From: a virus
Lineage: Duplodnaviria > Heunggongvirae > Uroviricota > Caudoviricetes
IMG/VR virus record: IMGVR_UViG_3300033074_000580
Span: 287,270 to 323,865 of that record
Direction: 5' to 3' (one strand)
Length of the DNA: 36,596 nt
Positions 21,684 to 25,463 of the stretch are shown piece by piece. The position numbers and the translations under genes are program-made. The notes below the pieces were generated by a model. That model did not search any database. It was not told where the DNA came from and saw only the letters and a list, made by a program, of their open reading frames with translations. Each line of letters begins with the position of its first letter. Position 1 is the stretch's first letter.

Positions 21684-22195
21684 TATATGTTATTATCTCT
21701 TTGTGTTATCATTGGTTCTAATGATGTTTTAAATGTTTCACCAAATTTTACCAATTTATCTAATATTATTATTGTTTCAGATTCAACCTTTAACATATCT
21801 GCGTTTATATAAACACCAGATTCTTCACCCGCAATAAGAACAAAACTAACGTCATCATCAGTTAATGTTCCGTCCAATCTTATTTGATTTTGATTTATGG
21901 TCATACCTGGGTCAAATTCAACAATTTGTGAAACTTCTTGTCTAAAACTATCAATAAGATTAGAAATTGAGTTTTGTTGTTCCTCAGATAATTTCATATC
22001 TGCCTCATCAGATGATAATAATTTAACATCAACATCGTTGATTACTGTGATATCATCTTTTACTTCTTGAGTTGTTTCAGGATTTACCGGTTCAACTTGT
22101 TCACTTAATGTTTTAATGGATGTTCTTGATTCATTTAAACTTCTAAGTTTGTTTAACATCCCCTTAGTGAAGTCATATTGATTTTTCATTTTCAT
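21683..22195 (-). CDS. Hypothetical acidic protein, possibly virion-associated
   Basis: The start is more likely one of the ATGs at 22189-22201 than the track's 22219. N-terminal KGMLNKLRSLNE, with TATTTAT at 22245-22251. Confidence 0.65.
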   Translation of the reverse strand: MKMKNQYDFTKGMLNKLRSLNESRTSIKTLSEQVEPVNPETTQEVKDDITVINDVDVKLLSSDEADMKLSEEQQNSISNLIDSFRQEVSQIVEFDPGMTINQNQIRLDGTLTDDDVSFVLIAGEESGVYINADMLKVESETIIILDKLVKFGETFKTSLEPMITQRDNNI

Positions 22196-22802
22196 TTGCA
22201 TTGTTAAAAAATACCCCAAAATTAAAAGAAGGGTTTATATCTGTATAAATACTTGAAAAGTTCGATTTACATACAATCCCCCTGAAATTTGATACATTTT
22301 CTAGGTATCCTTGGGATGGTACGATTTGTTTTAAAATCCCATGTTCGTCACATAGTTTGGAACATAGTTCTGACAATGATTTTAATTGGTCCTCGTTGTA
22401 TTTGTCCCAAAAGTAATAGTTTCTCCAATTACGAATATGAGGTTCCGACCTATATGGGTCTCCAACCCAATTATTAAGGACACCAGTGATGGTATTTTTA
22501 TTTAACCAACCCAAGTTCTCAATCGCAATTTTAATCATCTTATTGTCAACTTTTGGGTCGTCAAACGTTTTAGATGACCTTTCTACATCCATAACTTGGT
22601 AAACCATACCCAATTTAGATACAACAAAATGTGGAATATCTTCATACTTCCCGTTTTTACGATATTTTATTTTATTTACAAAATCGTCGATTCTTCTTTG
22701 GGTGTCGTATAAAAATATTTGGGTTTTTTTATATTTCTTCTTACCTACATTTAATTTACCAACGTCAATGGTCTCTACATTATGAATTGTTAACATTGTC
22801 AT
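22173..22802 (-). CDS. N-acetylmuramoyl-L-alanine amidase (Amidase_2)-like protein, apparently degenerate
   Basis: PHFVVSKLGMVYQ, IAIENLG, YNEDQLKSLSELCSKLC and TDINP match the amidase fold, but the expected Zn-binding His positions read YD and CK. Confidence 0.65.
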   Translation of the reverse strand: MTMLTIHNVETIDVGKLNVGKKKYKKTQIFLYDTQRRIDDFVNKIKYRKNGKYEDIPHFVVSKLGMVYQVMDVERSSKTFDDPKVDNKMIKIAIENLGWLNKNTITGVLNNWVGDPYRSEPHIRNWRNYYFWDKYNEDQLKSLSELCSKLCDEHGILKQIVPSQGYLENVSNFRGIVCKSNFSSIYTDINPSFNFGVFFNNANENEKSI

Positions 22803-23073
22803 TTTTTATTGTTGGTGTTACCATAATCTCATCTTCTGAGTTAGGTATTATTATTTTATCATTTTCCAAATCATAAATTACTTGATTTGGGTTTATGTCA
22901 TCCTTTTCCCAATATAACTCTTCTGTTGGTTGAGGTGGGGTGGGGTTAATTATTCTTTTTGGTCCGTATTTGTAAAATAAAGGAATATGTGTTCCAACAT
23001 TAGAAAATGTCGGATTACTTAAATCTTGAATACTTGTAGTTTGGTTCTGGGGACTTTTTGTATTTTCCTCTAG
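22780..23073 (-). other. 97-codon start-less open frame reachable by -1 frameshift from the upstream gene
   Basis: LEENTKSPQNQTTS...EELYWEKDDINPNQVIYDLENDKIIIPNSEDEIMVTPTIKNDNVNNS* begins immediately after the A10 run. Confidence 0.7.
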
Positions 23074-24644
23074 TTTTTTTTTTCGTCTTCAGAAGACGTC
23101 TCACTATCAATTTCATCATTTACCTCATTTAATGTGTCGTTCAATATTTGAACATCAACATCAAGTTCTTCGGGTAATTGAACATACGGTTCTGTAGATT
23201 CATTCATCTCAGGGATTGGTAATGAATTATCTATTTCATATTTCTCCACTTCTTCAGGTGTTGCAAACGGTTCTATCGGTTGTTCAGCCCAAAATTGTGC
23301 TTCCAATTCTGGTGTCCATTCATTTCCCGTTGGGACGTATTCATTACCCTCATTTTCCCAATATTGATTTTCCAATTCTTCGTCCCAATCTTCATGTAAA
23401 TTATGTTCAGCAATTGCCTCATCAATTACATTATCTTGGAAAATAATTTCCTCGTTTGGGATTATATTGGAAAAATTTTCATTCTCTTCCTCTTCTGTTG
23501 GTTCTATAGTGGAAGATTCTTCATCTTCAACCATGTTAAATTTTCTTTCCCATTCATCCATAAACATTTCTCTAACCTCTTCGTCAGATAATGCAGGTAC
23601 TACCTCTTCCTTAATCATTGGGTTGTCAAATGGTTCGTCATATAAACCTAACTCTTGGTCATTTTTCATCATTTCAGAAAGTATTTCTTCCGTTCTATTT
23701 TTTTCCTCGTCGTTTTTAAATCCTTTGATTGGTATATGTTTTTCTCTTACCTCATCACTATATCTTTTTGCTGCTTCCTTTAATTTTTCATTAGGAAATG
23801 GTGGATTTAATAAAACCTCCTCCAATTTTTTTATATCGTTTTCACTTAATTTTAATTTTGCAGATTCTTCCACCACATCTTTTACATCCACTTCTTCTTC
23901 ATCACCCTTTTTTGTTAACATAATTAACTGATTAAATGCAATGACCAACGCAATCGCCAATGGGTCAAACACAATAACGATTAAAATGATAAAAAACTTA
24001 ACTACCGAATTTAATTCAACACCAAAAGCTTCTGCAACAAATCTAAATCCTCCAACTTCTTTTTCTAAATCTAAGTTGGATGTTTTTATTTTGTTAATTT
24101 CTTCATTTTCTTTTGCATTCTCTTCTTGGAGTTTAGATATCTTATCATTTAGTTTAGCAATTTGTTTATCTCTATTATCAATAGAACGTAATAAACGTGA
24201 ATTTACTTTACCGTTATCTAATATCTTACCTTGATTATTGTTTGACTCGGTTATTTGTGTTGATAATTGTGAAATTTGGGAATTGTTTTGTTCAATTTTT
24301 GCAGTATGTATTGATATTTCTCTATCAACTTGTTGTAATTTAAGATTTTGTTGTTGGAACGCGTTTGACAAATATCCGAAGATACCTGCAGATGTGATTA
24401 ACATTAAAATTGTAACCGCAAATGATAAATACCATTTGTTAAATCCTTTAATTTCATCCCATCTTTGTTTTAAATAAGTTGCAGTAACAAGTTTAGCAAA
24501 TTCCAAAGAACCCGCCATTACCATAACCGCAACCGCAGCTCCACTAAACAAAACCCCCAATCCTGTTACAGAAAAATAAGCAGCACTACCGGCAATTAGT
24601 ATTGCCGATAATGCCACCAAATATTTTAACCAATTGTTATTCAT
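23070..24644 (-). CDS. Multi-pass membrane protein with coiled coil and acidic tail
   Basis: Three N-terminal TM helices (AAYFSVTGL, LEFAKLV, TSAGIFGYLS), a coiled coil, a further TM (IVIVFDPLAIAL) and a Glu-rich C-terminus ending EDEKKN*. Confidence 0.85.
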   Translation of the reverse strand: MNNNWLKYLVALSAILIAGSAAYFSVTGLGVLFSGAAVAVMVMAGSLEFAKLVTATYLKQRWDEIKGFNKWYLSFAVTILMLITSAGIFGYLSNAFQQQNLKLQQVDREISIHTAKIEQNNSQISQLSTQITESNNNQGKILDNGKVNSRLLRSIDNRDKQIAKLNDKISKLQEENAKENEEINKIKTSNLDLEKEVGGFRFVAEAFGVELNSVVKFFIILIVIVFDPLAIALVIAFNQLIMLTKKGDEEEVDVKDVVEESAKLKLSENDIKKLEEVLLNPPFPNEKLKEAAKRYSDEVREKHIPIKGFKNDEEKNRTEEILSEMMKNDQELGLYDEPFDNPMIKEEVVPALSDEEVREMFMDEWERKFNMVEDEESSTIEPTEEEENENFSNIIPNEEIIFQDNVIDEAIAEHNLHEDWDEELENQYWENEGNEYVPTGNEWTPELEAQFWAEQPIEPFATPEEVEKYEIDNSLPIPEMNESTEPYVQLPEELDVDVQILNDTLNEVNDEIDSETSSEDEKKN

Positions 24645-24650
24645 TCGATA

Positions 24651-25463
24651 CTATAAATAGTTTAGGAGACCGAAACTCTCGTTTCTTAGTTTCTTTATTG
24701 CCTTGTCTCGTAATTGTCTAATACGTTCTTTTGTACATCCAAATTCTTCACCCAAGTCCTCTAAATTAGATTCAACACCCGTTAAACCGTAATATCTTTC
24801 AATGATTGTTTTTTCTCTATCATCTAAAACATTTAACATCAACGCAACCTTTTTCTTAATTTCTTCGGGTGTGTTTAATGAATCTTCAGGGTTAGGTGAA
24901 TCTCTATTTGGTATCACATCAATCAATTGGTCACCATCTTCGTTAATTTGTCTATAAAGACCAACACAATATGGTAAAGTTGAACCAATTGGTTCCTCTC
25001 CGTTTTCAATAAAGAATTTATCTTCGGAACTAACACTTTCTTCTTTCTTTAATTTCTGTGCCTCTTGAATTAAATTAGAAGGAATTCTAATTGTTCTAGC
25101 GTTTTCATTTAAAGATGCGATAATTGATTGTTTTACCCACCACACCGCGTATGAAATAAATCGTAGACCGCTTGACGGGTCAAATCTTTCCGCCGCCTTA
25201 ATCAAACCAATGTTACCTTCTGAAATTAAATCCATTAAATCCATTCCTTGATTTTGGTACATTTTTGCCGCGGAAATTACGAAACGTAAATTACCTACAA
25301 CTAACTCATCTAATAATTTAGACCTCTCTTCTTTTGTGATGTCTTTCTTTTGTAATGAGTTGAAAATTTCATCTTGTCTTTCGTGTGTGATTACCGGAAT
25401 CTTACGAATATCTTTTACATAGATTTGGATTTCATCCGGATTTAAGATAATAGATTTTTTCAT
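24651..25463 (-). CDS. rpoD: RNA polymerase sigma70 factor, RpoD/SigA-like (Bacteroidota type, no region 1.1)
   Basis: Region 2 NLRFVISAAKMYQNQG..DLISEGNIGLIKAAERFD...FISYAVWW, and region 4 LEDLGEEFGCTKERIRQL. Confidence 0.92.
   Translation of the reverse strand: MKKSIILNPDEIQIYVKDIRKIPVITHERQDEIFNSLQKKDITKEERSKLLDELVVGNLRFVISAAKMYQNQGMDLMDLISEGNIGLIKAAERFDPSSGLRFISYAVWWVKQSIIASLNENARTIRIPSNLIQEAQKLKKEESVSSEDKFFIENGEEPIGSTLPYCVGLYRQINEDGDQLIDVIPNRDSPNPEDSLNTPEEIKKKVALMLNVLDDREKTIIERYYGLTGVESNLEDLGEEFGCTKERIRQLRDKAIKKLRNESFGLLNYL

Follow-up and report, generated by a model that had tools for sequence, protein, structure and literature searches.

We investigated a window of 36,596 nucleotides (nt), the final 36.6 kb of an IMG/VR phage record (IMGVR_UViG_3300033074_000580; 323,865 bp, 32% GC, estimated 97% complete), in which the gene of a membrane protein ends on an uninterrupted run of ten adenines (A10) placed next to its stop codon. 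As judged from comparison with its relatives, this gene most likely encodes a phage inner-membrane protein with two C-terminal isoforms, of 524 and about 621 amino acids (aa), produced by a programmed recoding cassette. The best reading of this cassette, which we hold to be probable, is that an RNA hairpin assists the RNA polymerase (RNAP) in slipping on the run and adding one A; a -1 ribosomal shift may contribute beside slippage, the two routes not being exclusive.

The A10 run and the extension in the -1 frame

The junction comprises the following features, all on the (-) strand of the window.

23070..24644, (-): main open reading frame (ORF), the short isoform, 524 aa, with a tail ending EDEKKN-TAG
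23074..23083, (-): A10 run, the putative shift site, holding the in-phase heptamers A_AAA_AAA and A_AAA_AAC
23070..23072, (-): zero-frame stop TAG, 1 nt past the run
23089..23091, (-): TGA closing the -1 frame just ahead of the run
22780..23073, (-): -1 frame extension, the C-terminal part of the putative long isoform (~621 aa), 97 codons and a TAA at 22782..22780
22843..22917, (-): core of the extension, LYWEKDDINPNQVIYDLENDKIIIP, defined from alignments and predicted to fold as a short beta-hairpin amid disordered sequence
23084..23098, (-): hairpin abutting the 5' end of the run, CGUCUU-CUG-AAGACG, stem of 6 bp, loop of 3 nt, -4.6 kcal/mol

The main ORF terminates with GAA GAC GAA AAA AAA AAC TAG. 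Because the TGA shuts the -1 frame just upstream, this frame is enterable only within the run, and in the window it presents no ATG, GTG or TTG ahead of the conserved motif, nor any ORF of at least 40 aa starting with one of these codons. The extension fills the 267-nt intergenic gap and overlaps the ATG of the next gene (22802) by 23 nt, and a read-through of the TAG in the zero frame halts after 16 codons. A first-pass annotation of this DNA had described the end of the ORF, the A10, the heptamer, the 97-codon frame, the TGA and the short read-through, all of which hold. It had also proposed a programmed shift at the A-run that gives the 524-aa and ~621-aa forms, and this proposal is now strongly supported, at the level of sequence comparison, by the -1 relation in 71 of 81 junctions, by the coding periodicity of the extension and by its lack of a start of its own.

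In the 323,865-bp genome the A10 is the sole homopolymer of at least 10. The other long A/T runs are eight runs of 9, none of them behind a long open frame, and long homopolymers are depleted genome-wide, with 9 runs of at least 9 compared to ~27 expected from an independent-base model (~7 A-runs and ~20 T-runs). In this gene family, 82% of the lysine codons of the main ORFs are AAA, and the other stretches of at least two lysines in these ORFs are all-AAA in just 26 of 69 cases. Three further assemblies, one from JGI and two from Logan that come from other sequencing runs, encode the identical 524-aa product and hence carry the A10; one differs from the window at 4 of 620 nt and is a distinct strain.

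Relatives of the locus (L001-L183) were collected by scanning IMG/VR and metagenomes with the main protein and with the extension. The extension profile, with matches down to E = 1e-31, was found in 150 loci; in 148 of them the contig includes the junction, and these junctions comprise 81 unique sequences. An uninterrupted run of A9 to A11 was present at the junction in all 81 and was never shorter than 9, so that the homologues carry both the slippery site and the extension for which the first-pass annotation had suggested looking. The extension lies in the -1 frame in 71 of the 81 (56 with A10, 13 with A11 and 2 with A9), including contigs of 200-334 kb. Eight junctions have it in frame, six of them in a single clade that reads 'A10 TTTA'; the remaining two are L102 and L103, and in L103, from a scaffold of 1.2 kb, an in-frame A11 precedes the same CTAGAG as in the window. 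In the last two junctions it is in the +1 frame: L004 is an allele with A10 in a lineage that has A11, and L125 is an allele with A11 in the in-frame clade. In the relatives the zero-frame stop falls 0-13 nt past the run.

The -1 relation is kept in four configurations, GAA AAA AAA AAN (A10 from codon position 2), GAA AAA AAA AAA NNN (A11), NNA AAA AAA AAA (A10 from codon position 3) and A9. Since the run length changes among these while the relation is kept, the frame has been compensated downstream, and this restoration of the -1 state after changes of run length points to a selected recoding site and not to errors or decay.

The extension itself has the consensus LYWEKDDxNPNQVIYDLENNKVIIP, often followed by a basic tail RNVSxxRRRxFR. 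Among 61 unique 51-nt motif segments, differences at codon positions 1, 2 and 3 numbered 3214, 2149 and 11623, and synonymous codon differences exceeded non-synonymous ones (9049 vs 3910); by this pattern of substitution the extension is a translated sequence under purifying selection. An ATG precedes the motif in only 2 of the 71 -1 junctions, and 25 of them, the window included, have no ATG, GTG or TTG ahead of it. In most junctions a stop shuts the -1 frame just upstream and the frame opens within a few nt of the run, 63 nt ahead of it at the most. Among 1.84 billion representative proteins, the extension domain formed 58 clusters at 50% identity, 52 of which are short stand-alone calls of 30-124 aa, and natural fused proteins also exist (P0011, of 557 aa, and L067/L070). 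In the AlphaFold2 model of the extension only a short beta-hairpin (VIYDL...IIIP) is predicted with confidence (predicted local distance difference test, pLDDT, ~90), the mean pLDDT is 67 and the rest looks disordered.

Additionally, unrelated sequence replaces the usual tail after the motif in P0040 (124 aa) and P0045 (163 aa), which suggests that other arrangements of the extension motif exist. The coding sequence of the extension also contains a 9-bp hairpin, UCCGACAUU-UUCU-AAUGUUGGA, at window positions 22993-23014 on the (-) strand, ~60 nt past the run; it lies within a second peptide motif, FSNVGTHIP..GP, that is common to only a subset of the relatives (L043, P0002), and its distance from the run is too great for a classic frameshift stimulator.

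A second group of homologues (L009, L014-L042 and L046) shares the N-terminal 300-340 aa of the main protein and has neither the A-run nor the extension. Most of its members end in another conserved C-terminal domain, with a DGDG-repeat and ...WINDQNAVNYWIKxIKPSQYP, of which L009 retains only the final part, WINNPKAVQYW. As this group carries a different C-terminal domain, it is uninformative on the shift site.

The hairpin 5' of the run and the probable mode of the shift

The inverted repeat that the first-pass annotation had noticed immediately 5' of the A-run, CGUCUUC-U-GAAGACG on the mRNA, is real and, since a 1-nt loop is impossible, it folds with 6 bp and a 3-nt loop. Taking the minimum-energy fold of the 30 nt ahead of the run and counting helices that end 0-3 nt from the run with an energy of -3 kcal/mol or lower, we found one in 69 of the 78 unique junctions, compared to 9.4% of control windows in the same genes, and the median energy percentile of the pre-run fold was 0.014. 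The arms vary by lineage (CAUCUUC/GAAGAUG, CAUCACC/GGUGAUG, CAUCAUU/AAUGAUG, CAACAUUAG/CUGAUGUUG, CAACUAA/UUAGUUG, GCUC..GAGC, AGCC..GGCU). In a MAFFT alignment of 19 sequences, 89.5% of the cells were paired and both sides had changed in 4 of 7 pairs, with a covariation score reached by 0 of 500 shuffles; slid registers of the same alignment were 14-64% paired. In a model-fitted alignment of 79 hits, compensatory changes occur in all 7 pairs. Some compensations couple synonymous changes at two third positions (Thr ACG with Asp GAC, vs ACA with GAT) and are not explicable by protein conservation. Searching with a covariance model of hairpin and run gave no second site in the 324-kb genome.

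A transcription terminator made of hairpin and run was considered and rejected on either strand: the mRNA strand has A's, not U's, past the hairpin, and on the other strand the T-run comes ahead of the hairpin.

In the proposed mechanism, standard decoding would give the 524-aa form, which ends one codon past the A10. In a fraction of the transcripts, the multi-subunit RNAP of the host, directed by a phage sigma factor, would slip on the ten A's and insert one extra A, and normal translation of the A11 mRNA would then continue as EDEKKK-LEENTK... into a form of ~621 aa that carries the conserved beta-hairpin motif LYWEKDD..NPNQVIYDLENxKxIIP. The nascent-RNA hairpin right behind the run would shorten or destabilise the upstream part of the RNA:DNA hybrid when this hybrid consists of rA:dT pairs only, and realignment would be promoted; intrinsic terminators and the slippage signal of Roseiflexus IS630 have this geometry. 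We infer a shift during transcription rather than translation, and likewise the role of the hairpin and the ratio of the isoforms.

Runs of 9 A or T suffice for efficient slippage of bacterial RNAP (PMC5009743; PMC3711429), and the E. coli enzyme needs longer A runs than T runs to slip (PMC6260861), a less ready slippage that gives a rationale for a helper hairpin. Of what homopolymer slippage calls for, the locus has three sequence features: a frame junction on at least some 8-9 identical A or T (A10 in the window, A9-A11 in 81/81), a conserved second-frame product reachable only through the run, and an out-of-frame layout conserved across diverged homologues (71/81, with A9, A10 and A11 and in two codon phases). 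A search of the genome for a multi-subunit beta-like RNA polymerase gave no match, and neither did a search for a T7-like polymerase, whose control was also unmatched so that absence of the latter is not established. Given the two sigma-70-like genes of this phage and no polymerase detected, the slipping enzyme would be the multi-subunit RNAP of the host.

The leading alternative, which we judge unlikely as the full explanation, is a programmed -1 ribosomal frameshift on A_AAA_AAC or A_AAA_AAA in faithful A10 mRNA, possibly helped by the nearby stop. A ribosomal heptamer needs 7 nt, and stimulators of -1 shifts lie 3' of the site or are Shine-Dalgarno-like. In the relatives an in-phase X_XXY_YYZ heptamer is found in every junction, trivially so for runs of at least 9, the extension is -1 in 71 of 81, and the zero-frame stop close behind the run would also suit such a shift. 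A-rich heptamers are, moreover, classic bacterial shift sites (PMC3711429). However, neither a 3' structure 5-9 nt downstream nor a 5' Shine-Dalgarno-like stimulator was found: downstream of the run the relatives have no consistent structure (median folding percentile 0.35), and in the window the fold there reaches only -1.2 kcal/mol, the nearest hairpin being ~60 nt away. Shine-Dalgarno-like motifs occur upstream of 3.8% of genes vs 8.7% inside genes and are thus not used by the phage, which suggests a host without Shine-Dalgarno-led initiation, such as Bacteroidota. The conserved structure is instead 5'-adjacent, where a translating ribosome would unwind it, and the runs are never shorter than 9 although 7 would suffice. 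The in-frame clade retains both A10 and hairpin, and the +1-frame allele of L004 is undecodable by a -1 shift and would require an insertion or deletion in the RNA; both fit polymerase slippage better, because slippage gives insertions and deletions. Slippage is therefore favoured over the ribosomal shift for its covarying 5'-adjacent hairpin, the run length never below 9 and the missing 3' stimulator.

Several points nevertheless weigh against hairpin-assisted slippage. The in-phase A_AAA_AAN heptamer is always present, and a -1 ribosomal shift could give part or all of the long form. The precedent for a 5' hairpin is a T5C5 motif, whereas the site here is a homopolymeric A run. Taken alone, the hairpin of the window is weak (z = -1.1, with 33 of 200 shuffles folding as well), and its significance comes only from the comparison with relatives, among which 9 of 78 junctions have no adjacent hairpin by the criterion used. 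The arms lie in coding sequence (T-S ... D-E), so their conservation is partly at the protein level, and the compensatory changes seen in 7 of 7 pairs of a 79-hit alignment come from an alignment fitted to the model, which leans towards structure. The junctions share phylogeny, and their counts overstate independence. Finally, the run-length alleles of L004, L125 and L103 vary at the DNA or assembly level.

These alleles lead to a further alternative, heritable phase variation at the DNA level, in which replication slippage would alter the run length and turn the extension on or off in subpopulations. Between identical flanks, L004 and L079 carry A10 and L164 carries A11; L125 has an A11 run in the in-frame clade of L070, which otherwise has A10; and L103 has its in-frame A11. 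The near-identical sequences of the first two comparisons, one A apart in the run, indicate a run-length polymorphism within lineages, real or arising in assembly. We nevertheless regard phase variation as improbable, since 71 of 81 unique junctions are in one out-of-frame state, this state is restored after length changes (A9, A10 and A11 all being -1), most in-frame cases arise through an extra T and not through a change of run length, the three more assemblies of this phage are all A10, and two in-frame representatives are on short contigs, one of them at less than 1x coverage.

An error of sequencing or assembly, with a true A11 run and one continuous ORF, or a decaying pseudogene, is close to refuted. 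Homopolymers are error-prone, and the small L103 scaffold does show an in-frame A11 ahead of the window's CTAGAG, but the same A10 recurs in four assemblies that differ in sample and pipeline, dozens of diverged lineages, some with contigs of 200-334 kb, retain the -1 state, and the extension is under purifying selection. The A11 that the first-pass annotation had named as fatal to its proposal is thus not what the other three assemblies of the phage contain. Independent initiation of the extension as a small gene, or its production by termination and reinitiation, is the least credible reading, for although gene callers list the stand-alone ORF in most clusters and a GTG or TTG stands somewhere ahead of the motif in 44 of 71 junctions, the positions of these codons are not conserved, common start codons fail in the 25 junctions mentioned above and ATG in nearly all, the frame mostly opens close to the run behind a stop, and fused forms such as P0011 and L070 occur naturally.

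Parallels among known recoding sites

The closest functional parallel, by analogy, is tssM1 of Citrobacter rodentium (Gueguen et al. 2014), an inner-membrane protein gene with A11 before its stop, whose product is 20-25% long form; the two forms are both required, as is their ratio (PMC4256274). As in tssM1, where RNAP adds A's to give short and long forms, the stop here follows a poly-A run in an inner-membrane protein gene. There is, however, no sequence relationship: TssM is a component of the bacterial type VI secretion system, whereas the present protein belongs to a jumbo phage and is known from sequence alone. For tssM, PMC4256274 does not mention a 5' hairpin. The tssM3 gene of Yersinia pseudotuberculosis (PMC4256274) is in frame and makes its short form through slippage; the in-frame clade resembles it in keeping its A10.

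For the hairpin, the closest mechanistic parallel is the Roseiflexus IS630 element (Penno et al. 2015), in which, as summarised in PMC5009743, a 5'-adjacent nascent stem-loop enables slippage with a terminator-like geometry. Here, too, a hairpin precedes the putative slippage motif; it covaries, and it ends 0-3 nt ahead of the A-run. According to the same summary, the Roseiflexus motif is a heteropolymeric T5C5 with a hairpin-dependent 1-nt deletion, while here the motif is an A9-A11 homopolymer at which a 1-nt insertion would be expected; the present run could also slip unaided, and its gene is not a transposase. The site would thus work like the Roseiflexus IS630 type, as that summary presents it, without being a member of it.

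In Thermus thermophilus dnaX and in dnaX genes with A10 (PMC5009743; PMC3711429), a run of 9-10 likewise gives mixed mRNAs and two products with a common N-terminus in a set ratio. In Thermus, however, it is the long form that is encoded in frame and the short one that slippage produces; DnaX is also of another protein family, and an adjacent hairpin has not been described for it. The in-frame clade, in retaining run and hairpin, parallels Thermus dnaX and Yersinia tssM3, both of which make their short form by slippage. Phage -1 ribosomal frameshifts such as the lambda G/GT tail chaperone (PMC5009743; PMC4256274) also yield a minor -1 C-terminal extension near the end of an ORF, with a ratio that matters; those are ribosome-decoded short heptamers in tail-assembly genes, unlike the A9-A11 run here, which has a hairpin on its 5' side and belongs to the gene of a membrane protein between a sigma factor gene and an amidase-like gene.

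Mechanisms of this kind are already known, and what appears to be new is the gene family, the phage setting and the conserved hairpin beside a homopolymer. Under the slippage reading, programmed polymerase slippage, of which few cases are known, would gain a natural family of ~80 distinct sequences, in the gene of a bacteriophage membrane protein rather than in an insertion sequence, dnaX or a secretion system. The junctions would also provide a natural series of stems, loops, spacings and run lengths (A9, A10, A11) usable to test how nascent RNA tunes slippage. As regards annotation, the extension is missed or called as an orphan small ORF in most relatives (52 of 58 clusters), and the putative long protein is absent from protein databases.

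The membrane protein, its neighbours and a possible role

The main protein consists of about three N-terminal transmembrane helices followed by a coiled coil, a fourth transmembrane helix and an acidic tail; by the positive-inside rule, we infer that the acidic tail and the extension are cytoplasmic. Its N-terminal 240 aa, the membrane and coiled-coil part, are conserved in many large phages, and cultured large phages match only this part, with 30-38% identity, so that cultured isolates are uninformative on the junction. Against GenBank phages, neither the locus by blastn nor the extension by tblastn gave a match. Pfam and PHROGs searches of the main protein assigned no function, and a search of the ESM Atlas returned only viral hypothetical clusters. 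An identity as Rz-like spanin was rejected, the weak coiled-coil matches being compositional.

Residues 255-296 of the main protein (window 23757-23882, (-) strand) match Pfam TacA1 with E = 4.6e-6 and 27 bits, compared to a curated cut-off of 21 bits. The match covers the C-terminal, toxin-contacting part of TacA antitoxins, and TacA1 is present in 73% of the members of the nearest ESM Atlas cluster. This stretch could be an antitoxin-like peptide on the cytoplasmic tail.

Two neighbouring genes frame the locus.

24651..25463, (-): sigma-70-like gene, upstream, with conserved synteny
22173..22802, (-): Amidase_2-like gene, downstream, whose start is overlapped for 23 nt by the end of the extension

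The order of sigma-70-like gene, membrane protein, extension and amidase-like gene is conserved, and the amidase-like gene is directly downstream in all relatives except two whose loci end too soon to tell. In most relatives the basic tail of the extension overlaps the start of the amidase-like gene by 32-38 nt, overlaps of 23-38 nt being common overall, and in some a gap of 4-21 nt separates them; the layout makes translational coupling of the extension to this gene possible but not general. A conserved module of large freshwater phages is thereby flagged, made of a sigma factor, a membrane protein with two putative isoforms and a zinc-less amidase-fold protein.

As for a role, we propose, tentatively and as a conjecture that we think unlikely to hold in full, that the cassette is a tunable ratio-setter of a freshwater jumbo-phage clade, with hairpin strength and run length as its settings. 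The beta-hairpin and basic tail of the long isoform might dock the zinc-less amidase-like protein, of T7-lysozyme fold, or the sigma factor, and the membrane protein might thereby tether or regulate phage transcription or lysis in a dosage-controlled way. If this were true, the site would be the first natural nascent-RNA hairpin selected to boost homopolymer slippage in a virus of bacteria.

The amidase-like gene is the best conserved gene of the module, with 54-80% identity in the relatives. Elsewhere in the genome, a second, weak match to sigma-70 region 2 lies at G000:C1:70736-70921 on the (+) strand, with 22.6 bits, below the cut-off.

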